NCBI GenBank assembly: GCA_902494165.1
Contig: CABUSD010000002.1
Location: 8,050 to 72,049 of the forward strand
Direction of reading: 5' to 3'
DNA: 64,000 nt
From: an uncultured Collinsella sp.
GTDB lineage: Bacteria; Actinomycetota; Coriobacteriia; Coriobacteriales; Coriobacteriaceae
The position numbers and the translations under genes are program-made. The notes beneath the pieces are model-generated. The model was given only the letters and a program-made list of their open reading frames with translations. It was not told the DNA's origin and searched no databases. This document shows, piece after piece, positions 1,585 to 63,066 of the stretch (position 1 is the first letter of the stretch; each line of letters starts with the position of its first letter).

Positions 1585-1593
1585 GGGGTATCT

Positions 1594-2475: not shown

Positions 2476-2483
2476 GCGCAGAA

Positions 2484-3608: not shown

Positions 3609-3616
3609 GAGGTCAT

Positions 3617-4186: not shown

Positions 4187-4188
4187 CC

Positions 4189-7334: not shown

Positions 7335-7335
7335 A

Positions 7336-11334: not shown

Positions 11335-11412
11335 GCCGGCGTTACGGAGGCCTGAACCTGCAGTGTGGCGGGGAATGGGCCCCACTGCACTGCAGAACGG
11401 GAAGGAGGCCAG

Positions 11413-11826: not shown

Positions 11827-11836
11827 GAGCAATCAA

Positions 11837-32159: not shown

Positions 32160-32526
32160 ACTGCTGAGTGGGCCAGACGGTCGCGCGATGTGCTGCTTGC
32201 AGTACGCGTGAGGAAAGTCCGGGCTCCAGAGGGCGGGATGCCGGCTAACGGCCGGGCGGAGTGATCCGACGGAAAGCGCCGCAGAAAAGAAGACTCCCAC
32301 CTGCGCCGCAAGGCGTAAAGGGAAAAGCTGAAACGGTGGTGTAAGAGACCACCAGCGTCGTGGCAACACGGCGGCTTGGCAAGCCCCATCCGGAGCAAGC
32401 GCGAATAGGAACGCTATGGGCCGGCCCGGTCCGCGTTCGGGTAGCGTGCGTGGAGCTGCACGGTAACGTGCAGACAAGATAAATGACCGTTCACGACAGA
32501 ACCCGGCTTACAAGCCCACTCGGCAC
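32160..32526 (+). ncRNA. rnpB: RNase P RNA (bacterial type A)
   Basis: Conserved GAGGAAAGTCCGGGCTCC (P4 5' strand) at 32210-32227 and ACAGAACCCGGCTTA (P4 3' strand) near 32496-32510. P1 pairs TGCTGAGTGGGC with GCCCACTCGGCA. Ends are approximate. Confidence 0.9.
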
Positions 32527-40618: not shown

Positions 40619-40828
40619 ACGTTCCTCTTTTAGGTTGCAACGCAAGCATTATAAAACGCGGTAAACGCGACGAGCCGGTGGGTTGGTTTCCATTCTGTTT
40701 CGCGGCCTGCAACCGACAGGTGTATTTGCGGGTACAGGCCGAGTCGCGGTCGTGCGTCGGGGGATTATACTGAGACAAGCATAAAGAATCGGCGCCCCTG
40801 TTGTGCGCCGTGGCATTAAGAGGTGCAT

Positions 40829-42091
40829 ATGGCAGAGAAGCTCATTCCGTTGGAGGACGCGCAGTCGATTGTCCTGTCGCACGTTGCTCCGACCGATCTC
40901 GTCGAGATTCCCGTGTGGCAGGCGGCTGGTTTTCCCTTGGCCGAGGACGCGGTGGCCGATATCGACATCTCGCCGTTTGCCAACAGCGCTATGGACGGAT
41001 ATGCCGTGAGCTCGGCGGACTTGGCGCAGGCATCTGGCGAGGCGCCGGTGACGCTCGACGTTATCGGACACGAGGCCGCGGGCCATGTGTTTGAGGGCGC
41101 AATCGGCGCGGGCGAGACGGTCCGCATCATGACGGGCGCGCCGGTACCCGAGGGTGCCGATGCCGTGGTGAAGTACGAGATCGTCGATGTGCTCGACGGT
41201 GACGGCAACGAGGGCTCGCGTGTGGGGTTCTCGGCGCCGGCCAAGGTGGGGGAGAACGTTCGCTCTGCCGCCGAGGAGGCCCATGCCGGCGACGTCGTGA
41301 TGCGTGCTGGCGAGGTTGTGGCTCCGGCGGGCGCGGGTCTGCTGGCAAGCGCCGGATACGCGAGCGTGAAGGTGCACGCTGCCCCACGTGTGGGCATCAT
41401 CTCGCTGGGCACGGAACTGGTCGCACCGAGCAAGGTACCGGCGCGCGGTCAGATTCGCGACTCCAACTCGTCGGCGCTGATGGCTGAGGCACTCGATGCC
41501 GGTGCCGAGCCCGTGTTCTACGGCATTGCGCCCGATGATGAGCAGGCGATCTCCGAGCTTGTGCATCGCGCCGTGCAGGAGTGCGATTTTGTCATTACGA
41601 GCGGTGGCGCCTCGGCGGGTGATTACGATTTCGTGACGGCGCTCGTCCGGTGCGAGGGCGAGGTGCTGTTTGACCGTATCTCGATGCGTCCGGGCAAGGC
41701 CATCACGTTTGGCTTGCTCGGGGGTAAGCCCTACCTGGGACTTTCAGGCAATCCGGCCGCGGCGTATGTGGGCTTTGAGATGCTCGCCCGCCCGGCGATT
41801 CGCAAGATGCGCGGCTTTGCCGAGGGTGCGCGTCCCGTGCAGCAGGCGACGCTCACACACGACGTGAAAAAGCGACAGCATCGCCGCTTCTTCGATCGCG
41901 CGACGGTTTTGCGCGACCCCGAGACCGGTGAGCTGTTGGTGACCGAGGCCAAGACGCAGAATTCGGCGCTGCTCGGCACGATGCAGCGGGCCAACTGCCT
42001 GCTGCGCATTGACGAAGGACCGTGCGACTTCAAGGCTGGCGCTGCCGTGGACGTCGTGCGCGTCGACCTGCCTGAGGGAACGGTGTTGTAG
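40829..42091 (+). CDS. moeA: Molybdopterin molybdotransferase
   Basis: MoeA features (...SPFANSAMDGYAV..., ...IITSGGASAGDYD...). ATG 40829 with RBS AAGAGG. Confidence 0.9.
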   Translation: MAEKLIPLEDAQSIVLSHVAPTDLVEIPVWQAAGFPLAEDAVADIDISPFANSAMDGYAVSSADLAQASGEAPVTLDVIGHEAAGHVFEGAIGAGETVRIMTGAPVPEGADAVVKYEIVDVLDGDGNEGSRVGFSAPAKVGENVRSAAEEAHAGDVVMRAGEVVAPAGAGLLASAGYASVKVHAAPRVGIISLGTELVAPSKVPARGQIRDSNSSALMAEALDAGAEPVFYGIAPDDEQAISELVHRAVQECDFVITSGGASAGDYDFVTALVRCEGEVLFDRISMRPGKAITFGLLGGKPYLGLSGNPAAAYVGFEMLARPAIRKMRGFAEGARPVQQATLTHDVKKRQHRRFFDRATVLRDPETGELLVTEAKTQNSALLGTMQRANCLLRIDEGPCDFKAGAAVDVVRVDLPEGTVL

Positions 42092-42101
42092 GAGGAAGAC
42101 T

Positions 42102-42581
42102 ATGGAGTTGAAGATTTCGATTGTGACGTGTTCGGACACGCGCGATCTTGCGCAGGATGAGGCCGGAGCCGCGCTCGAGGAGCTTATCGAGGCGCAGGGC
42201 TGGACGGTCTCCTCACGCGTGGTCGTACGCGACGACGTCAGCGAGATCGGTGATGCCATTGCGGAAGCCGCCGATGAGTGCCACGCCAATGTCGTGCTCA
42301 CCTGCGGCGGAACGGGTCTTTCGATGCGCGACGTGACACCCGAGGCGACGCGTGCCGTCTGCGACCGCGATGTGCCGGGTATTGCCGAGGCGATTCGCGC
42401 GTACTCGATGACTAAGACGCGCCGCGCTATGCTCTCGCGCGCCGTGTGCATGCAACGAGGTCATACACTTGTCGTAAACTTTCCCGGTTCTACGAAGGCC
42501 GCCCGCGAAAGCTGGGAGGCCATAGCAGACCAGCTGGAGCACGCGGCTCAGATGACAGCGGGCGGCGGACATACCAACTAA
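42102..42581 (+). CDS. mogA: MogA/MoaB-family molybdenum cofactor biosynthesis protein
   Basis: RBS TAGGAGGAAG. Motifs ...VVLTCGGTGLSMRDVTPEA... and ...LVVNFPGSTKA. Confidence 0.85.
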   Translation: MELKISIVTCSDTRDLAQDEAGAALEELIEAQGWTVSSRVVVRDDVSEIGDAIAEAADECHANVVLTCGGTGLSMRDVTPEATRAVCDRDVPGIAEAIRAYSMTKTRRAMLSRAVCMQRGHTLVVNFPGSTKAARESWEAIADQLEHAAQMTAGGGHTN

Positions 42582-42784
42582 GCGGTTTACCTGCGGCGGG
42601 GCGACCTAAACGGCTGCTCCGCCTTTGTTTTCCGCCGAAGCGACGCCGAGGTGCACGGTAACTTGAAACTATATTCTCTGACGAGAATAATATCTCACTA
42701 TCATTATTCGCGCAGAAGTATAATCTGGTTGCAGATTAAAGCCCGCGGCGGGGTGCCCGGGCGTAGCGTTCGAAAGGGTTGAAT

Positions 42785-43660
42785 ATGTTCGATATGGTTT
42801 CTCGCCGCGGATTCGTCTCGCTTTCTGCTGTCGCCGCTGCCGGCCTCGGTCTTGCCGGCTGCTCGGGCAACAAGACGTCCGAGCCTGCTGGTTCCGATGC
42901 CGGCTCCGCCAAGTCTTCCTCTAAGAAGAAGACTGTCGAGCTGCAGGTCTTTGCCGCCAACTCGCTCGAGAAGGCCTTGCCCGAGGTCCAGGAGCTCTAC
43001 ACCGAGCAGACCGGCACCACGTTTGCCGACACGCAGTTTAAGGCGTCCGGCGACCTCGTCGAGCAGATGCGTGCCGGCGCCACGGTCGACGTGCTCATCA
43101 CTGCTTCCAAGGGCACCATGGATGACGCTGAGACCGCTGAGCTCGTCGACACCGACACCCGCGAGGATATGTTCGTCAACGACCTCGTGATCATTCGCGC
43201 CGAGGGCTCCGACACCAAGGTCGAGGCCATCGCCGACGTCGCGAACCTGGACGGCAAGATCGCCATTGGCGACGCCAAGACCGTCCCCGCCGGCAAGTAC
43301 GCCAACCAGGCCCTGGCCTCCGTGGGCCTCTATACCGGCACCGAGGGCGACGACGGCGAGTATGCTCCCGAGATCGCCGACAAGGTCGCCCTGGCCGACA
43401 AGGTTGGCACTGCTGCCGCCTATGTGTCCACAGGCGACTGCGTGGCCGGTTTTGTCTACAGCTCCGACATCTTCCGCTACGATGGCATCGAGGAGGCCTT
43501 CGTTTGCCCCGAGGATTCGCACAAGCCCATCGTGTACCCGGGTGCCGTTGCCGATGGCTCCGAGCACGCCGACGAGGCCAAGGCGTTTATCGACTTCTGC
43601 CTGTCTAACAAGAAGGCTCAGAAGATTTGGGCTAAGTACGGCTTTGAGCTTTCCGCGTAG
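42785..43660 (+). CDS. modA: Molybdate ABC transporter substrate-binding lipoprotein (Tat-type signal)
   Basis: SRRGFVSLSAVAAAGLGLAGCSG (twin-Arg plus lipobox), then a ModA-like body (...VFAANSL..., ...TVPAGKYA...). Confidence 0.85.
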   Translation: MFDMVSRRGFVSLSAVAAAGLGLAGCSGNKTSEPAGSDAGSAKSSSKKKTVELQVFAANSLEKALPEVQELYTEQTGTTFADTQFKASGDLVEQMRAGATVDVLITASKGTMDDAETAELVDTDTREDMFVNDLVIIRAEGSDTKVEAIADVANLDGKIAIGDAKTVPAGKYANQALASVGLYTGTEGDDGEYAPEIADKVALADKVGTAAAYVSTGDCVAGFVYSSDIFRYDGIEEAFVCPEDSHKPIVYPGAVADGSEHADEAKAFIDFCLSNKKAQKIWAKYGFELSA

Positions 43661-43728
43661 TGCGGCTTGGCGCGATAATTCCATCGTTTTGTGTTTCACT
43701 CCGTCCTTGTATTCACTTGGAGCTTTTC

Positions 43729-45171
43729 GTGCTTAATAGATTCCGCATGTTTGTCGCCTGTGCTTTGACCTTCGCGCTTTGCTGGGTGCCGGGATTTGCG
43801 TTTGCTGGGGGCGCTGAGGACGGGGCCCAGGTTGCTGCGACCGCTCATGGGCTTTCCTACGGGATCGAGGGTTTTGAGCGGCTGGCCAAGGGGACCGCTC
43901 GTGCCATGGAGGGCCAGCCTGAGGGCTACCGGTTTCCCGTTGACGAGGACGTGGACCTTGTAGTGGCGCCTGCTGCCGATCGCGTTGTGGTGTGGATATC
44001 GCCCAAGGCGGTCGAGAAGTATGGACTGGATCCGCAGGACAACGAGTGCGTATCGGGTCTCAAGGCCCTCGTCTGTAAGCTCGACAGCGCAAACTGCATG
44101 GGAGGTGCGCAGCTAGGGGACGTGGATCTTCCTTGGTATGTTACGGCGGAAACAACGTTTGATGCTGGCGGGTATACCTATAGCTTTGACGAGCGCGGTG
44201 TGGATGGGGACCGCTATGTGGTGATTGCATCAGCCTCGGGTGATGCCAAGGGCGGCGCGCGTTGGCTTGATAGCGCTCAAATGGTAGAGGCATCGTCTGT
44301 CGTGTTGCGGGATGAGCAGGGGCCCTTGACCTCTCTGGCCTCCTTATTGGGCGACATCGACTATCGCCCATTTTGGGTGTCCATAAAAACGAGCGGCCTT
44401 GCACTGCTGATCTCCTTTGCGTTGGGCCTGTTCGCCGCGTGGAAGACTATGGGTACCTCGAGTCGCATCAAGGGCCTGCTCGATTCGGTCTTTACGATTC
44501 CTATGGTGCTGCCGCCCACGGTCTGCGGTTTTCTGCTCCTCATGCTGTTTGGTCGCTCGACCGGGGTGGGCCAGTGGCTCATCGCGCACGGCGTCTCCAT
44601 CGTCTTTACGTGGCCCGCAGCGGTGATATCTGCCGTGGTGGTGTCGTTCCCGCTCGTCTATCGTACGGCACTCGGAGCCTTCGAGAGCCTCGACACGCAG
44701 ATGCTCGACGCCGCGCGAACCCTGGGATGGTCCGAGCGTCGCATCTTTACCAAGCTTATGATGCCGCTTGGTTGGCCCTCGATTGCCGCCGGCACGGTGC
44801 TCGCCTTTGCCCGCGCGATGGGCGAGTTTGGCTGCACCCTGTTCTTTGCGGGCAACTACGCCGGCATTACCCAGACCATCCCCATCGCCATCTACTTTGA
44901 GTGGATGGGCGGCAACACCTCGGTGGCCCTCTTTTGGGTCGCCGTCGTGATCGTCTTTAGCTTTTTGGTCATCCTGTTCATCAACATGTATACGGCACAT
45001 TCGCAAAAGTACCGCGAGCGTGGCCTTTCCCGTGCGGAGCGCAAGAAGGCCAAAGAGCTCGCCGGTCAGGGCGATTCGCTCGACCCGGCGGGCGGCGATG
45101 CCCTGCGTATCGATCGCGAGGCATTGGCTGAGCTCATGCGCGATGATGCGGCGCCGCAGGGAGGTCGATAG
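43729..45171 (+). CDS. modB: Molybdate ABC transporter permease fused to an N-terminal roughly 225-aa extracytoplasmic domain
   Basis: The C-terminal half aligns by eye with ModB (LLDSVFTIPMVLPPTV, EAA loop DAARTLGWSERRIFTKLMMP). The N-terminus has a signal/anchor (FVACALTFALCWVPGFAFA) followed by an unassigned domain. Start is GTG 43729 or ATG 43747. Confidence 0.75.
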   Translation: MLNRFRMFVACALTFALCWVPGFAFAGGAEDGAQVAATAHGLSYGIEGFERLAKGTARAMEGQPEGYRFPVDEDVDLVVAPAADRVVVWISPKAVEKYGLDPQDNECVSGLKALVCKLDSANCMGGAQLGDVDLPWYVTAETTFDAGGYTYSFDERGVDGDRYVVIASASGDAKGGARWLDSAQMVEASSVVLRDEQGPLTSLASLLGDIDYRPFWVSIKTSGLALLISFALGLFAAWKTMGTSSRIKGLLDSVFTIPMVLPPTVCGFLLLMLFGRSTGVGQWLIAHGVSIVFTWPAAVISAVVVSFPLVYRTALGAFESLDTQMLDAARTLGWSERRIFTKLMMPLGWPSIAAGTVLAFARAMGEFGCTLFFAGNYAGITQTIPIAIYFEWMGGNTSVALFWVAVVIVFSFLVILFINMYTAHSQKYRERGLSRAERKKAKELAGQGDSLDPAGGDALRIDREALAELMRDDAAPQGGR

Positions 45172-45174
45172 GCC

Positions 45175-46245
45175 ATGTCACTCGTTTTGGATATCAAAAA
45201 GCACTATCCCGGGTTTATGCTCGACATGCAACTTGAGGCTGGCGAGGAGCGTGTGGCGCTGCTCGGTGCCTCGGGTTGCGGCAAGAGCTGCACGCTGCGC
45301 TGCATTGCCGGCGTGGAGACGCCCGACGAGGGCAAGATCGTCGTCAACGGCGTGATCTTCTTTGACTCGGCGGCGGGCATCAACCTGTCGCCCCAGGAGC
45401 GCAAATGCGCCCTGCTGTTCCAAAACTATCAGCTGTTTCCCAACATGACGGTGGCCGATAACGTATGCGCCGGTGTAAAGGATGCGGGCGACGCCGCCGC
45501 GCGCAAAAAGCTCGCCGAGCGCTATCTGAGCATTTTTGGTCTAGCCGATTTTGCCGACCGCTACCCCGCGCGACTCTCTGGCGGGCAGCAGCAACGCGTG
45601 GCGCTTGCCCGTATGGTGGCGGCGCATCCGGGCATTTTTATGTTCGACGAGCCCATGAGCGCACTCGATTCCTATCTTAAGAGCGCCCTCGAACAGAACA
45701 TGCTAGACCTGTTCGATGTATGCAACCGCACCGTGCTCTACGTGAGCCACGACATCGACGAAGCGTGCCGCCTGTGCCAGCGCATCTGCGTGATGCACGA
45801 CGGGCGTGTGGAGGAGATCGGCTCCGTCGAGGACGTGGTCCGTCGTCCGCAGACGCTGGCGGCACTGCGCCTGACGGGCTGCAAGAACACAAGCCGGGCG
45901 CGCAAGATCGGCGACGAAGAAGTTGAGGCGCTCGATTGGGGCATGACCTTTAACGTGGGTCGCGAGGTTCCCGATAATGTGGCGTACCTGGGCATTCGCG
46001 CGAGCTACTTCCATGTGGACAACCGTGCCGAGCGGGGTCGCAACAGCTACGACCTGCACGTGGCGCGCGTGAGCGATTCGCGTTTTGAGCGCCTGGTGCT
46101 GTTGGATGCGCCGCGGGCCGATGCGCCAACGCGTCTGCAGTGGAAGGTCAACAAATTGAGCGTACCAGCGGATGGGTTACCGCAAGAAGGCGAGACCCTG
46201 CGTATGCATTTTGATGCCAGCAGGATCCATTTGGTTTGTCGATAG
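45175..46245 (+). CDS. modC: Molybdate ABC transporter ATP-binding protein with C-terminal TOBE-like domain
   Basis: Walker A GASGCGKS, signature LSGGQQQRV, Walker B IFMFDEP. Confidence 0.85.
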
Positions 46246-46674
46246 CGCCGGGTAATGCCGTCGGGGATATAAGCCTCGGCGGCTTTGCCTTGCCGCTCGC
46301 CGAATGGGGAATGACAAACTCTTATCAACACAGATAATTATTTATTAAACGACGGCACACGAGGTTGTCGTACGAATGTCAACGGTGTTCGCATGGTCGA
46401 CGACCGTTGATATAGTTGACCTCAACTTGTAGAGGAGGGTGCGCACATGCCGCAGACGACATACATTCGCCGCGTTGCCGCGCGTGCCCTATATATGGCT
46501 CGGAGCCGCATATGAGCAGGTATGTTCACGGCTCCGGGAGAGACGACGCACAACTAAAAAACCGTCCGCAAGGCAGGTTCCCTAAAATTCCGGGTTTAGG
46601 CGCGGCTGGGTTTTCGCCACCCACCGTGCAGCAATACCGTAGCTATTCATTTTTGGTTCAAGAGGGGAACCGTT

Positions 46675-47841
46675 ATGGCTGAAGCAATCGAAGAAGTCAA
46701 GCTGCCCAGCACGTTTGAGGAGTTCAACGAGCAGCGCAAGGCGGCGTTTATTCGCGTCAAGGATTATAAGCAGGCGGGTAATCGCCTGGTCGGTTTTCTG
46801 TGCAGCTACACGCCGCTCGAGATTATCGATGCCGCGGGGGCTGCGAGCGTGGCGCTGTGCGGCACGTCCGACGAGGTGATTCCCGAGGCCGAGAAGGTGC
46901 TGCCGGCAAACCTGTGCCCGCTCATCAAGTCTACGTATGGTTTTGCCTATTCGCAAAAGTGCCCGTTTACGTACTTTAGCGACATGATCATCGGCGAGAC
47001 CACCTGCGACGGCAAGAAGAAGATGTACGAGCTGCTCAACGAGCTCAAGCGCACGCACATTCTGCACCTGCCGCAGAGCCGCGATCGCGCCCACGAGCGC
47101 GAGGGCTGGTACGAGGAGTGCCGCCTGCTCAAGGAGGAGCTCGAGAACTTCTACGGCATCGCGATTACCGACGATGATCTGCGCGCTGCCGTGCGCCGTC
47201 GCAATCGCCTGCGTGCGGCCCAGCTCGAGATGTTTGCGCTGCAGGCCAACCAGCCGGCGGCCATGAGCGGCGTCGACCTGATGAGTACCATGTTTGCCGG
47301 TACGTTCAGCTTTGATATCGAGGCCTATACGCAGCAGCTGGAGCAAAAGGTTGCCAAGCTGCGCGAGGCCTACGACGCGGGCGAGCGCCCGGTCGCGGCG
47401 GATGCCAAGCGCATTCTGATCACCGGCTGCCCGGTGGGCGGCGTAATCAACAAGATCGGTCGCACCATCGAGTCCAACGGCGGCGTGGTCGTGTGCATGG
47501 ACGACTGCTCGGGCGAGCGCACGGCGGCTATGATGATCGACCCGGACGCGCCCGACATTCTGCGCGCCATCGCCGACCGCTACCTGGATATCAACTGTTC
47601 GGTCATGACGCCCAACGACGGCCGCATGGAAAACACGCTGGCCATGTGCGAGAAGTACCATGTCGATGGCGTGGTAGAGAGCGTGCTACAGGCCTGCCAC
47701 ACCTTCAACGTTGAGAGCGCGCGCATGCAGGAGGCTGTCGAGGGTGCGGGTATTCCGTATATGAAGATCGAGACCGACTACAGCAACGGTGACATGGGCC
47801 AGATCGAGACCCGCATCGCCGCCTTCATCGAAACCCTCTAG
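46675..47841 (+). CDS. 2-hydroxyacyl-CoA dehydratase-family protein, single-subunit YjiM-like (double-cubane cluster protein family)
   Basis: 388 aa with RBS AGAGGGG. Conserved Cys positions ([35 protein letters not shown]) are typical of the HGD-D family. Its size matches the single-subunit members. Confidence 0.7.
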
Positions 47842-47996: not shown

Positions 47997-48761
47997 ATGA
48001 TAGGGATCGGGATCGATATCGGGTCTACGGCGGCTAAGGCCGCTGTGGTCGACGGGGAGGGTTCGGTGGCGTGGACGTGCGTGCAGCCAACCGGGTTCTC
48101 CTCGGTCGATGCTTCCGAACGGCTGCGCGAGGCGCTGGCAGCGGCCGGCTACGACGTGACGGCCGACGATGCTCGCGTGATCGCGACCGGCTACGGCCGT
48201 GTCGCCGTGCCCTATGCGCACAAGGTCGTGACCGAGATTACCTGCCACGGCACCGGTGCCGTGCGCCTGTTTGGCGATCACGGCACGGTGATTGACGTGG
48301 GTGGTCAGGACACCAAGGTCATTCAGCTTAAAAGTGGCCGCGTGGCCAAGTTTGCCATGAACGACAAGTGCGCTGCCGGCACGGGGCGTTTTTTGGAGAT
48401 CATGGCCGACCGCCTAGGCATTTCCCAGCAGCAGATGGCCGACCTGGCGCGTTCCGGCGAGCCCACCAAGATCAGCAGCATGTGCACGGTGTTTGCCGAA
48501 AGCGAGGTCATCAGCCTGATCGGTCGCGGTGAGCCGCGCGAGAACATCGCCCGCGGTGTGATCGAGAGCGTCGTGTCGCGCGTGGCCACTATGGCCGGGC
48601 AGGCGGCGGGCGCCCCGTACTACCTGACCGGTGGCCTGTGCGAGAACGCCTTCGTGGTGGAGCGGTTGGGCGAGCTACTGGGGTCGCCGGTGACCACCTC
48701 GCCCCAGGCTCGCTTTGCCGGAGCGATCGGCGCGGCTGTCCGCGCCGCCGCTTTGGCCTAG
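47997..48761 (+). CDS. BcrAD/BadFG-type ATPase (dehydratase/reductase activase, YjiL-like)
   Basis: 254 aa with MIGIGIDIGSTAAKAAVV (ASKHA phosphate-1), DVGGQDTKVI, and NDKCAAGTGRFLE (cluster-ligand Cys). Confidence 0.85.
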   Translation: MIGIGIDIGSTAAKAAVVDGEGSVAWTCVQPTGFSSVDASERLREALAAAGYDVTADDARVIATGYGRVAVPYAHKVVTEITCHGTGAVRLFGDHGTVIDVGGQDTKVIQLKSGRVAKFAMNDKCAAGTGRFLEIMADRLGISQQQMADLARSGEPTKISSMCTVFAESEVISLIGRGEPRENIARGVIESVVSRVATMAGQAAGAPYYLTGGLCENAFVVERLGELLGSPVTTSPQARFAGAIGAAVRAAALA

Positions 48762-48775
48762 GGGTGTACCGCGAC

Positions 48776-49993
48776 ATGCGCATCCTCAATATCACGGCAC
48801 AAAAACCAGATAGCACCGGCAGCGGCACCTACCTTGCCGCGCTTGTGCGCGAGCAGATCGAGACAGGGCATCGCGCCGCCGTGCTTTGCGGTGCGGCGCC
48901 GGGTGATACCCAAGGCGAGCTGGACCGGCGTGCTGCTGTGTTTGCCGTGCCGTTCGAGTCGCCCGAGCTGCCGTTTCCCATCTGCGGCATGTCCGATGTC
49001 ATGCCCTATCCCTCTACACGCTATCGTGACCTGACGCCTTCGATGCTCAAGGCATTTGAGCGGGCATTTGCTGCTGCAATCGATCGGGCGGTGGCTGAGT
49101 TTCGGCCCGATCTGGTGCTCTGCCATCACCTGTATCTGGTGACCGCATTGGCGCGCGAGTGCGTCCGGGGCGTGCCGGTTGTTGCCGTGTGCCATTCGAC
49201 CGACCTGCGCCAGCTGCGTTCGCATACGCTCGAGCGCGATCGCATCGTACGTGCGGTTCGTCGGCTCGATGCCGTCTTTGCGCTCCATGCTGAGCAGGCT
49301 GAGCAGATTGGCCTGGTGTGCGGCGTCGATGCCGATCGCATCCACGTGATTGGGACGGGCTACGACCATCGCGTCTTCTGCCGCGACGCAAGCGTGGCGA
49401 GGCGGCCGGGATCGCTTGTGTACGTGGGCAAGATTTGCTTTAAAAAGGGCGTCGAGTCGCTGGTTCGAGCCATGTCATTGCCGATTGACGATGGCGTCCG
49501 CCCATCTGGCTTGGTACTTGTGCGCGGCCGCGGGGACGATGCCGAGTACGCGCGTATCGAGCGCTTGGCCGCGGCCTCGGATGTGCCGGTGACGCTGGCG
49601 GGGCGCCTGGATAGCGATGGGCTCGTGCGTGCCTACCGCAGTTCCGACGTCTTAGTGCTGCCTTCGTTTTACGAGGGCCTGCCGCTCGTGACGATCGAGG
49701 CCCTCGCGTGCGGCTGCAAAGTTGTGGCGACCGATTTGCCCGGCGTTCGTCCCTGGATGGAGGCGATGCTTCCCGGTGCTCCCGTGACGTGGGTGGCGTC
49801 GCCGCGTATGACGGATGTCGACACGCCCGTGGCGGCCGACCTTCCGTTGTTTGAGCGCGCACTGGCAGATGCTATCGCGCAGGCGCTTGCGGATCCGCCT
49901 TCGACGTTCGAGCCGTCGGCGGTCTCTTGGGAAGCGTGCCTGGGGCGTATACTTAAAGTCGTTGATTTGTTAGAAGGGGGTTCGTATGGCTAA
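48776..49993 (+). CDS. GT-B fold glycosyltransferase (GT4-like), translationally coupled to selD
   Basis: 405 aa starting MRILNITAQKPDSTGSGTYL, with a C-terminal E-x7-E motif (FYEGLPLVTIEALACG). The start is 14 nt after the activase stop, and the stop lies 8 nt inside selD. Confidence 0.75.
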   Translation: MRILNITAQKPDSTGSGTYLAALVREQIETGHRAAVLCGAAPGDTQGELDRRAAVFAVPFESPELPFPICGMSDVMPYPSTRYRDLTPSMLKAFERAFAAAIDRAVAEFRPDLVLCHHLYLVTALARECVRGVPVVAVCHSTDLRQLRSHTLERDRIVRAVRRLDAVFALHAEQAEQIGLVCGVDADRIHVIGTGYDHRVFCRDASVARRPGSLVYVGKICFKKGVESLVRAMSLPIDDGVRPSGLVLVRGRGDDAEYARIERLAAASDVPVTLAGRLDSDGLVRAYRSSDVLVLPSFYEGLPLVTIEALACGCKVVATDLPGVRPWMEAMLPGAPVTWVASPRMTDVDTPVAADLPLFERALADAIAQALADPPSTFEPSAVSWEACLGRILKVVDLLEGGSYG

Positions 49994-51035
49994 GGACACC
50001 ATGAGGCTCACGTCCATGACGGCCGCGAGCGGTTGAGCCGCTAAGTTGGCTCCTGGAGCCCTCGCCCAGGTCCTGGGCGACTTACCCAATGTGCATAACG
50101 ACAACCTGCTCGTGGGGTTCGATACCTCCGACGATGCGAGTGTCTTTCGTGTTGGCGAAAACCTGGGCCTCGTGCAGTCCGTCGACTTCTTCCCGCCGAT
50201 GGTCGACGATCCCTATCTGTTCGGCCAGATCGCCGCAGCCAACTCGTTGTCGGACATCTACGCCATGGGCGGGCGGCCGAGCCATGCTATGAACTTGCTG
50301 TGCATTCCGAGCTGTCTGGGCGTTGAGGTTGCCGGTCAGATTCTGGCGGGCGGCGCCGACAAGTGCGTCGAGGCGGGTTGCTCCATCGCGGGCGGTCACA
50401 CCATCAACGACGACGAGCCCAAGTACGGTCTGTCCGTGAGCGGTTTTGTCGCGCTCGACCGCATGCTCGCCAACAGCGGCGCACGCGTGGGCGATGTTCT
50501 GCTGCTGACCAAGGCGATCGGCTCGGGCATCATCACCACGGCTATTAAGGGCGAGCTCATCGAGCATGACGAGGCCGCAGCCATGTTTGACTCGATGCGC
50601 ACCCTCAACGAGGCGCCGATTCGTCTGGCCGAGGGACTTGAGCTTCACGGCTGCACCGACATTACGGGCTTTGGTCTGATCGGGCACGCGTGCGAGATGG
50701 CCGAAGGCTCGGGCGTGCAGATTGAACTTGCGTCGGGGGCGGTGCCGCTCTTTGATCAGGTGCTCGACATGGCACGTCTGGGCATTATCCCCGCGGGCTC
50801 CTATCGCAACCAGGACTTCTTCGGCCCGCGCGTGGCTGCCGACGAGAACCTGGAGCCGGGTATGCTCGACGCGCTGTACGATCCACAGACGTCTGGTGGC
50901 CTGCTTATCGCGGCACCTGCTGCCGATGTGGATGAGCTTGCGCGCCGTCTGCATGCCGAAGGACGTATCGCCGCCGCCGTCGGTCGCGTGTGCGAGCCGG
51001 TGCCAGGCGGTCCTGCCGTCCACGTTGTCCGCTAG
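49986..51035 (+). CDS. selD: Selenide, water dikinase (selenophosphate synthetase), selenocysteine-containing
   Basis: MAKDTMRLTSMTAASG-U-AAKLAPGALAQVL..., with in-frame TGA at 50034-50036 where other SelD proteins have Cys/Sec in the G(C/U)xxK loop. Downstream is a PurM-like body. Alternative start at ATG 50001. Confidence 0.9.
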
Positions 51036-51095: not shown

Positions 51096-51722
51096 ATGCC
51101 TACTAAGATTGAAGTCAATGCCATGGGCGATGCCTGCCCGCTGCCCGTCGTCAAGACGCTTAAAGCCCTGAAGCAGCTCGATGGCGAGGGCGTTGTCGTG
51201 ACCTCGGTCGATAACGAGACCGCCGTCAAGAACATCTCCAAGATGGCGCAGGAGAAGGGCTGCACGGCCTCGGTCGAGAAGGTTTCTGACGCCGAGTGGC
51301 ACGTGACCGTGGCGACCTCTGGCGCCGTGGCCGTTGTGGACCCCGAGCAGGACGGTGCCGCTTTTTGCGACGCAAGCGCCGGCAAGGGCAAACTCGTCAT
51401 TTCCGTCTACACCGATTGCATGGGCCGTGGCGACGACGAGCTGGGCCACAAGCTCATGAAGGCGTTTATCTTTGCCGTGACACAGCAGGAGGAACTGCCC
51501 GCGACCATGCTGTTCTACAACGGCGGCGCCAAGCTCACCGTCGAGGGCTCGCCAGTGCTCGACGACCTGAAGGGCCTGGCGGAGCAGGGCGTCGAGATCC
51601 TTACCTGCGGTACCTGCCTCGACCACTATGGCATTAAAGACCAGCTCGCGGTGGGCGAGGTCACCAACATGTACGTGATCGTGGAGAAGATGGAGCAGGC
51701 TGTGCGCGTCGTGCGCCCGTAG
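51096..51722 (+). CDS. yedF: Selenium metabolism protein YedF (TusA/SirA-like N-domain + DsrE-like C-domain)
   Basis: 208 aa with NAMGDACPLPVV (TusA-type CP motif) and a C-terminal ...LTCGTCLDHYG... Confidence 0.8.
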   Translation: MPTKIEVNAMGDACPLPVVKTLKALKQLDGEGVVVTSVDNETAVKNISKMAQEKGCTASVEKVSDAEWHVTVATSGAVAVVDPEQDGAAFCDASAGKGKLVISVYTDCMGRGDDELGHKLMKAFIFAVTQQEELPATMLFYNGGAKLTVEGSPVLDDLKGLAEQGVEILTCGTCLDHYGIKDQLAVGEVTNMYVIVEKMEQAVRVVRP

Positions 51723-51741
51723 CGTATTGGTTGGAGTTGCC

Positions 51742-51993
51742 ATGAGGGAGAAGCGCCCGGCGCTTGTCATCACGTTTCCCACCACGGCGGCCGCCATGGG
51801 GTGCGAGTCCCTGTGCATCGAGCGCGGCCTTCCCGGGCGAACGATTCCCGTGCCCGGGGAGGTCGCTGCTGGCTGCGGTCTGGCGTGGAAGGCGTTGCCT
51901 GCCGATGAGGAGCTGCTGCGCGGCGAACTCGCCGCGGCGGGCGTTCCCACCGAGGGCTATACCGTGATTGATATGTGGGAGGTCGTGCGATGA
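51742..51993 (+). CDS. DUF3343 (putative Se/S carrier-like) protein
   Basis: 83 aa with ...LVITFPTTAAAMGCESLC...IPVPGEVAAGCGLAW... Confidence 0.7.
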   Translation: MREKRPALVITFPTTAAAMGCESLCIERGLPGRTIPVPGEVAAGCGLAWKALPADEELLRGELAAAGVPTEGYTVIDMWEVVR

Positions 51994-53129
51994 TCTACCT
52001 GGATAACGCGGCGACGACCATGCACAAGCCGCAGGAGGTCATCGATGCGGTGACGCAGGCGATGTGCTCGCTCGGCAATGCCGGGCGCGGCGCCACGTCG
52101 GGTGCACTCGATGCGGCACGTACCATCCACGGCTGCCGCGCCAAGCTTGCGCGCTTGCTGGGCTGCCCGCGTGCTGACCATGTTTGTTTTACGCTCAACT
52201 CCACCGCGGTGCTCAACACCGCCATCAACGGGGTGGTGCGCCCCGGCGACCGCGTGGTCACGACGGTGCTCGAGCACAACTCGGTGCTACGTCCGCTCAA
52301 CCGCTTGGCGGCAGAACAGGGCGTGACCGTTGAGCATGCGGGCTGCGACGCGGACGGCGTTCTCGATTATGACGAGCTCGAGCGGCTGGTCACGCCGGGC
52401 ACGCGTGCCGTGGTGGTGACGCACGCCTCCAATGTGACCGGCAACGCGGTCGACATTGCGCGCGTGGCGGCCATGGCCCATGCTGCCGGCGCGCTGGTGA
52501 TCGTCGACGCCTCGCAGTCTGCCGGCGCGATGCATATCGATATGCAGGCCATGGGGCTCGACATTGTGTGCTTTACCGGCCATAAGGGGCTCATGGGACC
52601 TCAAGGCACCGGCGGCCTGGCCGTGGCGGAGGCTGTTGACGTGGCTCCGTGGGCCATGGGCGGCACGGGCGTGCACAGCTTCGATGCGTTGCAGCCGCTT
52701 GAGTGGCCCACGCGCCTCGAGGCGGGCACGCTCAACGGCCACGGCATCGCGGGCCTTTCTGCCGGTCTCGACTTTATCGAGGCGCAAGGCGGGGTCGAGG
52801 CGATCGCGGCGCATGAGCGAGCGCTGGCTGAGCGCTTTCTCGCTGGCGTGCGCGAGATTCCGGGGATTAAGCTCTACGGTGCGTTTGACCAGCCGACGCG
52901 CTCTGCGATTGTGTCGCTCAACGTGGGTGATATCGACTCTGCCGAGATCTCGGACGCGCTCATGCAAGGGTGGGGGATTGCGACGCGCCCCGGTGCCCAT
53001 TGCGCTCCGCTCATGCACCGCGCGCTGGGGACCGAGCGCCAGGGCGTCGTCCGCTTCTCGTTTGGGTATTTCAACACGGACGAGGAAGTCGACACTGCGA
53101 TTGACGCTTTGCGCGATTTAGCCTGCTAG
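51990..53129 (+). CDS. Class-V aminotransferase: cysteine desulfurase / selenocysteine lyase family
   Basis: ATGA overlap with the previous gene. MIYLDNAATT..., ...FTGHKGLMGPQG (PLP Lys), and ...TRPGAHCAP (active-site Cys). Confidence 0.85.
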   Translation: MIYLDNAATTMHKPQEVIDAVTQAMCSLGNAGRGATSGALDAARTIHGCRAKLARLLGCPRADHVCFTLNSTAVLNTAINGVVRPGDRVVTTVLEHNSVLRPLNRLAAEQGVTVEHAGCDADGVLDYDELERLVTPGTRAVVVTHASNVTGNAVDIARVAAMAHAAGALVIVDASQSAGAMHIDMQAMGLDIVCFTGHKGLMGPQGTGGLAVAEAVDVAPWAMGGTGVHSFDALQPLEWPTRLEAGTLNGHGIAGLSAGLDFIEAQGGVEAIAAHERALAERFLAGVREIPGIKLYGAFDQPTRSAIVSLNVGDIDSAEISDALMQGWGIATRPGAHCAPLMHRALGTERQGVVRFSFGYFNTDEEVDTAIDALRDLAC

Positions 53130-53143
53130 AGCGTATATACTTG

Positions 53144-53178
53144 CGGGACGGGTGTTTTTGCCCGTCCCGTTTTTGTTT
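53144..53178 (+). terminator. Terminator ending the Se gene cluster
   Basis: CGGGACGGG-loop-CCCGTCCCG followed by TTTTTGTTT. Confidence 0.9.
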
Positions 53179-54647: not shown

Positions 54648-54724
54648 CGGGACGTGGCGCAGTTTGGTAGCGCGCCTGCTTTGGGAGCAGGATGTCGCAG
54701 GTTCAAATCCTGTCGTCCCGACCA
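54648..54724 (+). tRNA. tRNA-Pro (anticodon TGG)
   Basis: Hand-folded cloverleaf: acceptor CGGGACG/CGTCCCG, anticodon loop TTTGGGA, T-loop TTCAAAT, encoded CCA. Confidence 0.9.
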
Positions 54725-54730
54725 TATCTT

Positions 54731-54804
54731 GCGGGCGTAGTTCAATGGTAGAACCCCAGCCTTCCAAGCTGATGACGCGGGTTCGATTCCCGTCGCCCGC
54801 TCCA
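54731..54804 (+). tRNA. tRNA-Gly (anticodon TCC)
   Basis: Acceptor GCGGGCG/CGCCCGC, anticodon loop CTTCCAA, T-loop TTCGATT, encoded CCA. Confidence 0.9.
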
Positions 54805-57102: not shown

Positions 57103-57529
57103 CACTGCCCTCCCTTAGCTAACGTGCAATATAGTCGGTCAAATGCGGCATACACCGACATCTTAGAATCTTATAACCTTTACTTTATTTTACTCAAGTA
57201 AATAACCATTAACACGAATACAAGCGTAGTACATCCAAAATGAGAGCGCGTAAAAATCTCTGAGGCGTACGCATGTAATACACTCACCTTTATAGCTTCT
57301 AGAGAATAATTCCAACCTGCCAAAACCCCTGCAATACACCCGTATTGCAGGGCCTATGCTCAAGTTTGCCCCCTGCAACTGCGTATTTTTAACCTGTATA
57401 TCGTTGGAGAAACTCTACCGAGTGCATGTTTCGCCGCATGCATTCGATACGTCGATGCCAGGCCACGGGCGGCTTGGGTCAATGTCGACAGGGTCTCTCC
57501 GACAAGGGATTCAGGAGGGAGTGAACAAC

Positions 57530-58048
57530 ATGGGTAATAAGCGAGTCGTAGCCGATTCTTCGCGCTGCATTGGGTGTCAAACCTGCATGGCGGCGTGTAT
57601 CGAGGCGCACGACATCCCCGGTAACATCGCCGCGCCGCGCCTGCGCGTGACGCGTACGTACGAGATCTCCGCACCGGTGGCTTGCCATCACTGCGAGGAT
57701 GCCCCGTGCGCGAAGGCCTGTCCTACGGGCGCCTTGTTCTTTGATCCAAAGAACCATCGCATCGGCGTCAACGAGGACAACTGCATCGGCTGCAAGAGCT
57801 GCGTCATGGCCTGCCCCTTTGGCGCCGTGAGCGTGGCGACCACGCAGGTCCCCGTCTTGATGGGCGACGTGCGCGTAGGTTCGCAGACTAAGAGCTTCGT
57901 GCTCAAGTGCGACCTGTGCGTGGACCGTCCCGGCGGTCCGGCGTGTGCCGAGGCTTGTCCGACCAAGGGCCTCACCCTGGTGGACGAGGAGCGCCTGGCG
58001 GAGCTGACTGCCGAGCGTGCCCGCGCCACCATCGAAAACGAGGCGTAG
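57530..58048 (+). CDS. 4Fe-4S ferredoxin-type electron-transfer subunit (HycB/FdhB-like)
   Basis: RBS CAGGAGGGAG. Four Cys clusters (CIGCQTCMAAC, CHHCEDAPC, CIGCKSCVMACP, CDLC...C). Confidence 0.85.
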   Translation: MGNKRVVADSSRCIGCQTCMAACIEAHDIPGNIAAPRLRVTRTYEISAPVACHHCEDAPCAKACPTGALFFDPKNHRIGVNEDNCIGCKSCVMACPFGAVSVATTQVPVLMGDVRVGSQTKSFVLKCDLCVDRPGGPACAEACPTKGLTLVDEERLAELTAERARATIENEA

Positions 58049-58124
58049 GCGGGCGGCCATACAAGCCCAACGATTGTCAAATACGTACCGATTAATCGGT
58101 AGCAGAGAAAGGAAGGAGGGTGTC

Positions 58125-60347
58125 ATGGAGAAGCATAAAGTGATCTGCCCGTATTGCGGCGCCGGTTGCCAGTTTAACCTCTTGGTCCAAAACGGCCAGG
58201 TCGTGGGTACCGAACCGCTCAACGGCATCACCAATCAGGGCGAGCTGTGCCTTAAGGGCATGAGCGGCTACGACTTCATCAACGACACCAAGATCTTGAC
58301 TCCTCGCGTACTGCACCCGATGATCCGCCGCACTAAGGGCGCGGATCTTGAGCGCGTAAGCTGGGACGAGGCACTGGATTTCACCGCATCTAAGATGCAG
58401 GCCATAATTGACGAATATGGTCCTAACGCTGTCATGACCACTGGCTCTTCGCGAGGCGGCGGCAATGAGGCGAACTACGTTATGCAGAAGTTTACGCGTG
58501 CGTGCATCGGCACCCACAGCGTGGACAACTGCGCCCGTACTTGACACGGCCCTACTGTCCTCGGTCTGATGGACACGGTTGGTTCAGGTTGCATGTCATG
58601 CTCCATCCCCGGTATGGAGGATGCGGGCTGCATTTTCCTCTTCGGCTATAACCCTGCCGATTCGCACCCCATCGTCGCAAGGCGTATCGTGCGAGCCAAA
58701 GAAAAGGGTTGCAAGATCATCGTCGCCGATCCGCGCCATATCGAAACCGCGCGTATCGCCGATCTCTACCTTCCGATCAAGAATGGTTGCAACGTCGCGT
58801 TCCTCAACGCCTTTGCCAACTGCTTGGTCAACGATGGCCTCTACGACAAGGAATTCGTCGCCGAGCACACGAACGGCTTTGACGAGTGGTGGGAGACCAT
58901 CAAGAACTACACTCCCGAATCCGTACAGGACATCACGGGCGTCGAGCCTGCGTTGATCCACCAAGCTGCCGAGATGTACGCCACGGCGAAGCCCTCTGCC
59001 ATTATTGGCTGGGGCATGGGCGTATGCCAGCAGAAGCAGAACCTGAAGACAGTGCACACCATCGCCTCCATCGCCTGCGTTGCCGGTCAGATCGGCAAAC
59101 CCAATTCCGGTCTCGCGCCCGTGCGTGGCCAGAATAACGTCCAGGGCTCCTGCGATATGGGCATGCTGCCCAACCTGTACCCTGGCTACCAGAAAGTCAC
59201 CGACCCGGCAGTGCGTGCCAAGTTTGCCAAGGCTTGGGGCGTGCCCGAGGAAAAGCTCCCGCTCGAGGAGGGCTACAAGCTCACCGACCTGGGCCACCTG
59301 GTCGACGAGGGCAAGGTGCACTGCTTCTACAACTACGGCGAGGACCCGGTGCAGACCGAGCCCGATTCGGCCGGAATGCGCAAGACGCTCTCCGAGCTGG
59401 ACCTGTTCATTTGCCAGGACATCTTTATGACGCAGACGACCATGCTCGCCGACGTCATCCTGCCCGCTACCTCTTGGGGCGAGCACGAGGGTGTCTTTAC
59501 CGCATCCGACCGTAGCTTCCAGCACTTTGACGCGGCTGTTCCGCCCAAGGGCGAGTGCCGCCACGACTGGGAGATCTTCGCGGACCTGTCTACGCGTATG
59601 GGCTATCCCATGCACTACGACAACACCGAGCAGATCTGGAACGAGTGCATTAGCCTGTGCCCCAACTTTGTGGGCGCGACCTACGAGAAGATGGCTCCCG
59701 AGGGCGGTTACGCCCAGTGGCCGGTCAAGAGCACCGATGTGAACGACCACGGTACGCCCGACATGTTCGCTGGTGGCAAGTTCACCACCAAGGACGGCCG
59801 CGCCAACCTGATGGCGCACGACTGGGAGGCGCCCTCCGAGCTTCCCGACGATGAGTACCCGCTCATTCTGTGCACCGTCCGCGAGGTCGGTCACTACAGC
59901 TGCCGCTCGATGACCGGCAACTGCAAGACGCTGGCGCTGCTCGCCGACGAGCCCGGCTTTGTCCGCATGAATCCCGCGGACGCCCAGGCGCGCGGCATCA
60001 AGAACGGCGACATCGTCTCGATTCATAGCCGCCGCGGCCAGGTATACAGCCGCGCCGACGTGAGCGATCGCATCAATAAGGGCACGGTCTACATGACCTA
60101 CCAGTGGTGGATCGGCAAGTGCAACGAGCTGACCATTCACAAGGTCGACCCGGTCTCGCATACGCCCGAGGACAAGTTCTCCGCCTGCCAGGTCGACGCC
60201 ATTGCCGACCAGGTTTGGGCAGAGGGCGAGGTAGAGCGTCAGTACACCGAGCTCAAGCAGGCTCTGGTGGACGCCGCTGCTCCCCAGGACGTTGAGCCCG
60301 GCGCCGCCAAGTTCGACGACGAGACGCACGTGAACCAAATCGTGTAG
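58125..60347 (+). CDS. fdhF: Formate dehydrogenase H (molybdopterin, selenocysteine-containing)
   Basis: RBS GGAAGGAGGG. N-terminal CPYCGAGC 4Fe-4S motif. In-frame TGA at 58542-58544 (codon 140) within VDNCART-U-HGPTVLGL, which joins ORFs 58017..58544 and 58569..60347. Confidence 0.92.
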
Positions 60348-60425: not shown

Positions 60426-61043
60426 ATGAACCGCTTCATCGACATCAACCCGGAGAGGTGCATCGGCTGCGGAACATGCCAGTCCGCCTGTGCCGACGCC
60501 CACCGGATGCAGGGTCTTCAGGATACGCCGCGCCTGGCGCTCGTGAAGACCGGCGGTATTTCGGCCGCCCTTGCCTGCCACCATTGCGAGGGTGCTCCCT
60601 GCGCCGAGGTTTGCCCGGTGAATGCCATCGAGCACGATGGCGATCGCATCCACGTCAAGGAGCAGGAGTGCATCGGGTGCAGGCTGTGCGCCATCGCGTG
60701 CCCCTTCGGAGCCATCCATCCCGATGGCACGTCTATCGCCGGTGTCGCAGGCATGTGCGACCCGACGCCTTCGTATCCTAAGTCCCTGAGCAGCCTGCTT
60801 ACGTGGGCTCCTGGCCAGTACACCTGCGCCGTCAAGTGCGACCTGTGTGCCTTCGATCCGGACGGCCCGCATTGTGTGGCGGCGTGCCCCACCAAGGCGA
60901 TGACCGTCATGGGCGGCGCGGCCGATCGCGAGCTCGACGAGGCCAAGCGCCTGCGCTCGATCGAAAACGGTCCAGTCGTCGACGTTACCGCTGTGGCCCA
61001 GGGCCTGTCCGAGAAAGCAGAAGGGAGCGTAAACAATGGATAG
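60426..61043 (+). CDS. hycB: 4Fe-4S ferredoxin-type subunit (HycB/HyfA-like)
   Basis: Motifs CIGCGTCQSAC, CHHCEGAPC, CIGCRLCAIACP, CDLC...C. RBS AAGGAAG. Confidence 0.85.
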   Translation: MNRFIDINPERCIGCGTCQSACADAHRMQGLQDTPRLALVKTGGISAALACHHCEGAPCAEVCPVNAIEHDGDRIHVKEQECIGCRLCAIACPFGAIHPDGTSIAGVAGMCDPTPSYPKSLSSLLTWAPGQYTCAVKCDLCAFDPDGPHCVAACPTKAMTVMGGAADRELDEAKRLRSIENGPVVDVTAVAQGLSEKAEGSVNNG

Positions 61044-63054: not shown

Positions 63055-63066
63055 GGAGGGGAGAGC

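Follow-up and report, generated by a model that had tools for sequence, protein, structure and literature searches.

Why should a glycosyltransferase gene stop inside the start of selD, the gene for selenide-water dikinase, and what would its product be doing among genes for selenium mobilization? The question is raised by a locus in a 64,000-nucleotide (nt) stretch of DNA from an uncultured Collinsella sp. (contig CABUSD010000002.1 of assembly GCA_902494165.1, positions 8,050 to 72,049 of the forward strand; this whole stretch is called the window hereafter), where the glycosyltransferase (GT) gene is the third of seven in the order double-cubane reductase, activase, GT, selD, yedF, DUF3343 and nifS-like, four of the other six belonging to families tied to selenium mobilization or activation. 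A preliminary description of the locus had seen in this GT either a SenB-like selenosugar synthase or an ordinary envelope enzyme of family GT4 sitting there by chance, and neither proposal withstood the comparisons reported here. The GT is a recurrent member of the selenium island in high-GC, presumably Coriobacteriia, lineages, which is an addition to the published island model, and the explanation that we tentatively prefer, while putting its probability somewhat short of even, is that Coriobacteriia recruited a soluble small-molecule GT4 into their selenium-mobilization module, that in Collinsella this enzyme is co-translated with SelD, and that its product serves selenium handling.

The GT open reading frame (ORF), of 405 amino acids (aa), runs on the plus strand from ATG 48776 to TAA 49991-49993, and selD runs on the same strand from ATG 49986 to 51035, which leaves an 8-nt overlap, ATGGCTAA, holding both the selD start and the GT stop, exactly where the preliminary description had placed them. 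A purine-rich, Shine-Dalgarno-like GAAGGGGG lies within the GT coding region, 7-14 nt before the selD ATG, and a stop/start overlap with such a site inside the upstream gene is, at the level of sequence, what is expected of a translationally coupled pair; ribosomes finishing the GT could thus restart on selD, the GT stop being 8 nt inside it. The arrangement is well kept among the genome loci recovered with the GT, nearly all of them from Collinsella, 77 of 80 having a detectable selD and 70 of these 77 retaining the 8-nt overlap. Because short stop/start overlaps are common between neighboring genes of bacterial operons, the overlap by itself is no proof of a common pathway; it points to co-transcription and to probable coupled translation.

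The case against chance comes from the comparison across lineages. A profile search of genome contigs with the GT alignment gave 80 loci, 76 of them near-identical Collinsella ones that inform on conservation and not on diversity; the diversity was recovered via exact-protein look-ups and a metagenome scan (80 more loci), with the flanks of the metagenome loci annotated by tblastn with selenium-gene queries and the GTs clustered at 85% identity. Clusters of at least 55% GC, presumably Coriobacteriia, are referred to as high-GC and were counted only where at least 5 kb of flank was available. Selenium genes accompany the GT, next to it or close by, in 16 of the 22 high-GC clusters, and these 16 show at least 10 architectures, with the nifS-like gene as its commonest direct neighbor; the selenium-linked orthologues are 48-60% identical to the window GT (53-60% in the exact-protein look-ups), and their neighbors comprise selD, selA, selB, yedF, DUF3343 and nifS-like genes. 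Thermophilibacter immobilis, for example, has selD, selA, selB, yedF, DUF3343, GT and nifS-like (the last with a 4-nt overlap), followed by an ABC importer; Arabiibacter massiliensis has selB and selA divergent to GT, nifS-like, yedF and DUF3343, with selD and a LysR gene following on the opposite strand; and in Slackia faecicanis the GT is divergent to selB and selA. Crude ORF calls on the high-GC metagenome loci contained spurious antisense ORFs and were not used for annotating the DNA that separates the GT from nifS-like genes.

By our own estimate, a random gene would fall within 10 kb of one given island of ~10 kb in ~1% of cases in a genome of 2-3 Mb, and since the GT does so in 16 of 22 high-GC lineages and in that many arrangements, its position among the selenium genes is not a matter of chance. 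The adjacency of GT and selD therefore stands, on comparative genomics, as functionally meaningful, whereas the SenB-type selenosugar mechanism that had been read into it does not, and the notion of an envelope GT4 placed there by accident is not supported either, given these 16 selenium-linked lineages and the nearest relatives of the enzyme, which are soluble small-molecule GT4s. The published selenium-utilization island (selD, selA, selB, yedE, yedF, DUF3343, a selenocysteine lyase-like gene and LysR_Se; Lin et al. 2015, PMC5322559) is represented in the window by selD, yedF, DUF3343 and nifS-like in one unit, and the orthologous islands of other Coriobacteriia add selA, selB and LysR, as in that model, which, however, holds no glycosyltransferase. 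The STRING table of the same paper does list, at rank 6 and without discussion, a link between Slackia heliotrinireducens YedE and the adjacent "glycosyltransferase" Shel_25140, which may belong to the family of the window GT, and the partners of this YedE also include activase and dehydratase-like genes (PMC5322559, Table 1).

What kind of enzyme is it, then? The GT-B assignment made in the preliminary description is upheld by Pfam (Glyco_transf_4, 67.8 bits; Glycos_transf_1, 60.1 bits), and the marks of CAZy family GT4 are found together: both Pfam domains above their cut-offs, the E-x7-E pair (E300...E308) and two Rossmann-like domains in an AlphaFold2 model (pLDDT 93.1, pTM 0.90). The best Foldseek matches of this model are almost all GT4 enzymes, with ManT (7qsg) ranked first, and the nearest proteins by structure or profile are ManT, GlgM (6tvp), sucrose-phosphate synthase (SPS; 6kih, 9dcm), MshA (3c4q), BshA and the BH4 glucosyltransferase, and GlgM, sucrose-phosphate synthases, MshA and BshA likewise head the list when a family profile of 60 members is run against all PDB sequences. 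Most of these characterized enzymes act on small soluble acceptors that are phosphorylated or acidic: GlgM takes Glc-1-P, SPS takes Fru-6-P, MshA an inositol phosphate and BshA malate. With such soluble GT4s (GlgM 6TVP; SPS 6KIH and 9DCM; MshA 3C4Q; BshA 5D00 and 6N1X) the window GT has the two-domain architecture, GKxxxxKG and E-x7-E in common; it differs from them in an identity of only 15-24% and in that the specific NCBIfam models all stay far below their cut-offs (MshA TIGR03449, 41.4 against 462.5 bits; BshA TIGR03999, 30.1 against 273.7; GlgM-type TIGR02149, 55.9 against 302.4). Its N-terminal, that is, acceptor, domain has invariant motifs of its own (GMSDxMPY, CHHLY and HSTDLRQ), unlike GlgM, SPS, MshA and BshA, and its acceptor is therefore expected to differ from theirs.

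Six motifs mark the subfamily as a whole: Q(K/R)PxxTGSG, GMSDxMPY, (C/S)HHL(Y/W), H(S/G)(T/S)xLRQ, GKxxxxKG and LPSxxEGLPLVxxEA. A search of 1.84 billion representatives (50% clustering, threshold E <= 1e-30) returned 650; in the best 150 of them, which score 324-568 bits and reach down to 31% identity, all six motifs are largely retained, truncated entries apart, and no NCBIfam model reaches its cut-off for the three family members tested. Judged by profile and motifs, the GT falls within a large GT4 subfamily that is sharply defined and has as yet no name, the membership of the window protein being partly circular in that it is a founding member of the profile. Fusion proteins exist among the distant members (P0185, P0200, P0255, P0224), the partner being DUF6873, a GFO/IDH/MocA oxidoreductase or, at the N terminus, a GGACT domain, and DUF6873, the partner in P0185 and P0200, had no relative in PDB or NCBIfam. 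The apparent activase-GT fusions of 602-669 aa (P0002, P0004, P0005, P0008 and P0009), on the other hand, are not real: they are public proteins that stem from frameshifted gene calls, whose junctions switch from the activase frame into an out-of-frame upstream extension of the GT ORF (48638-48775 in the window).

Within Collinsella the gene comes in two versions. In 76 of the 80 genome loci, nearly all labeled Collinsella (a genus that GTDB splits finely), the GT is 91-98%, and mostly 94-98%, identical, in keeping with a window from the C. aerofaciens group, whereas in L077-L080 the GT protein is only 71% identical to that of the window, against 90-97% for DCCP (the double-cubane reductase), for its activase and for SelD, YedF and NifS-like. 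At the DNA level the identity in L078-L080 is 59-80% over ~48650-49980, that is, the GT gene and a short upstream stretch, and ~90% on both sides, which looks like allelic replacement of the GT gene alone. The comparison of the divergent allele also took in L110 and L111. The junction with selD varies with this allele, the overlap being 20 nt in two loci (e.g., L077) and being replaced in L079 and L080, according to the tblastn matches, by a gap of ~10 nt.

Before the SenB proposal is weighed, the nature of the neighboring SelD has to be settled. The call of this gene as selD is confirmed by its match to TIGR00476 (Table 1), and the gene carries an in-frame TGA, absent from the preliminary account, as its codon 17 for selenocysteine (Sec); none of the 77 loci, nearly all of Collinsella, in which selD was detectable has lost this TGA, and the Thermophilibacter selD (L081) has it too. 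The candidate SECIS hairpin past it lies in a region (50034-50085) with a predicted folding energy of -22.1 kcal/mol and a modest z of -1.82. A second selenoprotein gene, the Sec-containing fdhF, lies further downstream in the window, and its product, formate dehydrogenase H, is a likely consumer of what the selenium operon makes, the fdhF region as a whole being possibly that of a formate hydrogenlyase. As the organism makes selenoproteins (SelD, FdhF), its selD is the housekeeping, Sec-containing one and not a pathway-specific paralogue of the SenC type; the protein also matches the equivalog models of housekeeping SelD.

The comparison of the 405-aa GT with SenB by hidden Markov model leaves little of the proposed kinship: the SenB model, TIGR04348, gives 21.7 bits where its cut-off is 300, the match covers residues 207-324 only, which is the generic C-terminal nucleotide-sugar domain, and in the NCBIfam scan fifteen other GT4 models rank above it. 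Relatives of the window GT score hardly better (P0253, 28.6 bits; the GT of L161, 33.7 bits), and SenB chains appear neither among the 60 top PDB sequences matched by the GT family profile (60 members) nor among the 50 top Foldseek PDB matches of the AlphaFold2 model. The donor-binding motif of SenB is EGGAHV (E231), together with N20/T23 (PMC10891094), and where SenB has it, the window GT has the canonical GT4 E-x7-E stretch YEGLPLVTIEA (residues 299-309). What SenB (TIGR04348; PDB 8K5U and related entries) and the window GT do have in common is the GT-B fold, a gene beside a SelD-type gene, SPS (6KIH) and BshA as structural neighbors, and a conserved Lys in the diphosphate-binding region; this last likeness, with K158 of SenB as the catalytic residue of Se-P cleavage, cannot discriminate, because K219 and K224 of the window GT sit in its GKxxxxKG and the Lys motif is kept in every family member examined.

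The other differences concern length (~405 aa against ~330 aa in SenB), stereochemistry, SenB inverting the anomeric configuration (PMC10891094) and GT4 enzymes normally retaining it, and gene partners, since the SenB system includes SenA and a dedicated SelD paralogue, SenC, whereas the window has its housekeeping SelD and no SenA. On the latter point the preliminary description was right: an EgtB/SenA-like gene was found nowhere among the window ORFs that were scanned, which were not all of them. By its sequence the window GT is thus not SenB, the only characterized enzyme that forms a C-Se glycosidic bond according to PMC10891094.

The reading preferred here starts from the company that the GT keeps. 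In six clusters, five of them low-GC (40-48%) and one of 57% GC, a PHP+PHP_C phosphoesterase gene (208-227 aa) lies directly downstream of the GT, forming a two-gene module (L137, L142, L148/L152, L161, L169 and L135), and in L135 nifS-like and DUF3343 genes lie 6 kb from this module; in Olsenella, a HAD hydrolase gene is directly upstream. Phosphatase partners are known from SPS, with sucrose-phosphate phosphatase (SPP), and from MshA, with MshA2. Because of the acceptors of the nearest GT4s and of these PHP and HAD neighbors, the window GT may be pictured as a phospho-glycoside synthase that works, in some lineages, with a separate phosphatase. The enzyme is a soluble GT-B glycosyltransferase of family GT4, in which the anomeric configuration is normally retained; its most likely reaction would be hexose transfer from a nucleotide sugar, the acceptor being small, soluble, anionic and probably phosphorylated, and in the related lineages the adjacent PHP or HAD phosphatase would then strip the phosphate from the product. 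Coriobacteriia would have recruited this metabolite-forming step into the selenium-mobilization module (nifS-like, yedF, DUF3343, selD), with the product perhaps acting as a carrier, buffer or acceptor in selenium handling.

Several observations weigh against this proposal. Selenium genes were found within 10 kb of the GT neither in six high-GC lineages nor in the low-GC (40-48% GC) clusters; Olsenella sp. YH-ols2217 has a HAD hydrolase gene, an MFS gene and an ABC importer as GT neighbors and no selenium gene near, L085 has the importer and no selenium gene, and L087, L099, L103 and the L113 group have no HAD, MFS, importer or selenium gene. The family reaches far beyond Coriobacteriia, and its members in Desulfuromusa and Desulfobaccales (Desulfobacterota) are solitary. 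From the other side, two loci reached via SelD, namely an Olsenella-like selenium island and a lone selD, have no GT within 10 kb; the former (L170, 4974-12876) holds yedE (Sulf_transp), a short TusA gene, two DUF3343 genes, two nifS-like genes, yedF, a gene for a C_GCAxxG_C_C protein and one for a SLAC1/TehA-like channel, and shows that the composition of selenium islands varies. The SelD search found SelD in other Olsenella and in Paratractidigestivibacter and nothing decisive for Olsenella sp. YH-ols2217, and the literature search retrieved no paper mentioning Olsenella with SelD. Neither a PHP nor a HAD partner is present in the Collinsella window, and the acceptor is argued by analogy, from relatives and neighbors only. 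Finally, all selenium-linked cases are high-GC, so the linkage may in part be inherited synteny and not selection. In a neighbor-joining tree, though, selenium-linked and unlinked high-GC GTs are interleaved, a pattern that argues for repeated loss of an older selenium linkage in some lineages, and all 31 context representatives largely keep the subfamily motifs, those of the N-terminal domain being the same in all context classes, which suggests one chemistry through the family.

Of the competing explanations, the one that survives best takes these observations at face value and makes the enzyme a housekeeping GT (for a compatible solute, a storage glycoside or a glycolipid precursor) that has no chemical link to selenium and owes its position to inherited synteny and hitch-hiking. 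Compatible solutes are classically made by a GT encoded together with a phosphatase, as in SPS/SPP, and the GT-PHP and HAD-GT pairs resemble this layout; in three groups the family is met away from selenium genes, selenium islands without the GT exist, and L143 has glgC/glgD-like genes beside the GT. Transport genes point the same way: a PhnS2/T2/U2-like ABC importer, consisting of a double-length permease, an ATPase and a binding protein, adjoins the GT in five loci (L081, L084, L085, L100 and L120), in which importer and MFS genes flank it, and two of the importers (those of L081 and L120) stand inside selenium islands. On this account, however, it is difficult to see, unless co-expression was selected for, why the GT should have remained in the island despite at least 10 rearrangements, with nifS-like or selD genes that it often abuts or overlaps; co-location was seen in 16 of 22 lineages against the ~1% estimated, and we therefore regard a purely housekeeping role as unlikely, if far from negligible.

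The second competitor keeps the selenosugar and does away with SenB: selenophosphate from the coupled SelD would serve the GT as an anionic acceptor, the resulting glycosyl selenophosphate would lose its phosphate once water, a PHP/HAD phosphatase or the GT had cleaved the Se-P bond, and the 1-seleno-sugar would be a store, carrier or donor of selenium. SenB provides a precedent, being a GT-B enzyme whose reaction goes through a selenophosphosugar, and the proteins closest to it in structure, SPS 6KIH and BshA, also rank among the best matches of the GT (PMC10891094); the GT is coupled to selD and, in many lineages, embedded in a selenium-mobilization module, the invariant His, Arg, Thr and Ser of its N-domain motifs could suit a small anion, and the phosphoesterase partner of its relatives fits the need for phosphate removal. 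Against this stand the SenB model score, the lack of EGGAHV and the absence of SenB from the top sequence and fold matches given above, the normally retaining course of GT4 as opposed to the inverting one of SenB, the nifS-like gene, and not selD, as the commonest direct neighbor, the many family members that keep identical motifs with no selenium gene nearby, and the absence from the cluster of any downstream consumer such as SenA or OvsA that could be found. Such a route is accordingly quite unlikely for this GT, and that gut Coriobacteriia, possibly along with many other anaerobes having GMSDxMPY GTs, make selenosugars independently of SenB from the selenophosphate of SelD is distinctly improbable.

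A third idea, by analogy with MshA and BshA, that the GT opens the synthesis of a low-molecular-weight thiol or selenol carrier, its glycoside being built up elsewhere into a cysteine-bearing cofactor that would reduce or carry selenium for NifS-like, YedF, DUF3343 and SelD, draws on MshA and BshA as close structural relatives, on an MshA-type product needing a phosphatase such as that seen beside GT relatives, on the frequent cysteine desulfurase-like neighbor and on the fact that we know of no major thiol described for Coriobacteriia, but it is very unlikely given the MshA and BshA model scores quoted above and given that no deacetylase- or cysteine ligase-like gene occurs among the annotated neighbors (the metagenome loci having been screened with selenium-gene and transporter queries only).

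Preferring, as we do, the recruited small-molecule GT4, it is worth looking at the unit into which it would have been recruited (Table 1). The intergenic gaps within the seven genes are at most 155 bp and two junctions overlap; as the whole is, in addition, framed by terminator-like and promoter-like sites, the seven genes form, judging from this layout, one transcription unit. The second overlap concerns nifS-like, whose probable start, ATG 51990, shares 4 nt (ATGA, 51990-51993) with the end of DUF3343 and has GGGAGG 8 nt upstream; against the SclA model the NifS-like protein scores 353.8 bits, under the cut-off of 525. The Rfam search of the 5' leader of the operon gave no match. The two genes at its head, for DCCP (NF040772) and the activase, conform to the report that 955 of 970 high-scoring DCCPs occur in SelD-positive genomes (Haft 2022 preprint, 10.1101/2022.07.06.499078), in which, by contrast, no glycosyltransferase is mentioned. 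Both genes recur in the selenium islands of other lineages (L138, L149), and L168 (7932-11203) has activase, DCCP and GT in a row with flanks in which no selD, selA, selB, yedF, DUF3343 or nifS-like gene was detected. Many Collinsella strains (L001, L013, L066, L069 and L078-L080) have a second DCCP paralogue, of 38-39% identity, between modC and the operon DCCP, and some of them also have an insert of ~5 kb with two ABC ATPase genes upstream of the latter; in the window this interval is a gap of 430 bp only.

Table 1. Coordinates of the features discussed, in the window unless another locus is named.
Feature	Coordinates	Strand	Basis or remark
Terminator-like hairpin closing the modABC unit	46257-46283		Followed by the promoter-like sites
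Promoter-like sites before the operon	46311..46416	+	Consensus scan, 10/12 and 9/12 matches; consensus matches only
Double-cubane [8Fe-9S] cluster anaerobic reductase (DCCP), first gene	46675..47841	+	NF040772 498.5 bits (cut-off 350); Pfam HGD-D 373.6
ATP-dependent activase (BcrAD/BadFG family) for DCCP	47997..48761	+	TIGR00241 234.7 bits (cut-off 125.4); PF01869 192.5
GT4 glycosyltransferase, "GMSDxMPY" subfamily, 405 aa	48776..49993	+	Pfam, NCBIfam, sequence and structure comparisons
8-nt overlap, selD start and GT stop	49986..49993	+	Window sequence
selD, selenide-water dikinase, Sec17	49986..51035	+	TIGR00476 340.8 bits (cut-off 125); NF002098 305.8 (cut-off 299)
In-frame TGA/UGA, Sec codon 17 of selD, motif SG-U-AAK	50034..50036	+	Sequence and translation
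8-bp hairpin with GUC loop, 26 nt past the selD UGA; candidate SECIS	50062..50080	+	RNA fold
yedF (TusA + DsrE), selenium metabolism protein	51096..51722	+	TIGR03527 213.8 bits (cut-off 110); Pfam TusA, DsrE
DUF3343 / Se_S_carrier small protein	51727..51993	+	PF11823 65.7 bits; ATG 51742 is the probable true start
NifS-like cysteine desulfurase / selenocysteine lyase family, EF2568 type	51975..53129	+	TIGR01977 419.7 bits (cut-off 377)
Strong intrinsic-terminator-like hairpin, 12-bp stem and T tail, ending the unit	53143..53170	+	
4Fe-4S protein gene before fdhF	57356-58048		
Sec-containing fdhF, formate dehydrogenase H, CART-U-HGP site	~58122-60347, TGA 58542-58544		Split at TGA by ORF callers
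Membrane-subunit genes after fdhF (domains of NADH dehydrogenase and Mrp-antiporter type)	61036-63993		
PhnS2T2U2-like importer, L081	10420-14111		
PhnS2T2U2-like importer, L084	13223-16998		
PhnS2T2U2-like importer, L085	11368-14909		
PhnS2T2U2-like importer, L120	11341-~14900		
PhnS2T2U2-like importer, L100	11306-15232		

Upstream of the operon, moeA and then modA, modB and modC occupy 40823-46245 and are parted from it by the terminator-like hairpin; the ABC transporter encoded there (42779-46245) was considered as a counterpart of the importer seen near the GT elsewhere and proved to be ModABC (modA 139.8 bits, modB 208.7 bits) and not PhnS2T2U2-like. The ModB permease ORF, if read from its first possible start, has 503 aa, with an N-terminal extension of ~238 aa that has no domain match. 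Downstream, the brnQ ORF as listed (from TTG 53141) crosses the terminator-like hairpin at 53143-53170, so the true start must be further downstream; its Pfam match begins at residue 31. Just past brnQ, at 54648-54804, are the genes of tRNA-Pro(TGG) and tRNA-Gly(TCC). Elsewhere the window holds RNase P RNA (32165-32526, 276.5 bits) and a prophage late region (285-13215) with genes for a neck/tail-completion protein, a major head protein (1594-2475), a tape-measure protein (4911-7334), a tail protein (9458-11080) and an amidase endolysin (11965-13215).

As for what the finding means, the published models of the selenium-utilization island, built from selD, selA, selB, yedE, yedF, DUF3343 and a Sec lyase-like gene, are devoid of sugar chemistry, and what is new is a conserved, uncharacterized GT4 subfamily that recurs in the selenium island of abundant human-gut Actinomycetota (such as Collinsella and Eggerthellaceae). 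Possible outcomes are a second route to selenosugars, a small-molecule carrier of selenium, or a new soluble glycoside made by what is elsewhere a widespread "glycosyltransferase family 4 protein", and the locus also adds to the still unexplained link of double-cubane reductases with selenium. Should the linkage turn out to be inherited gene order only, a large family of enzymes, as yet unnamed, would still have been defined, with clear signature motifs and with phosphatases as partners.

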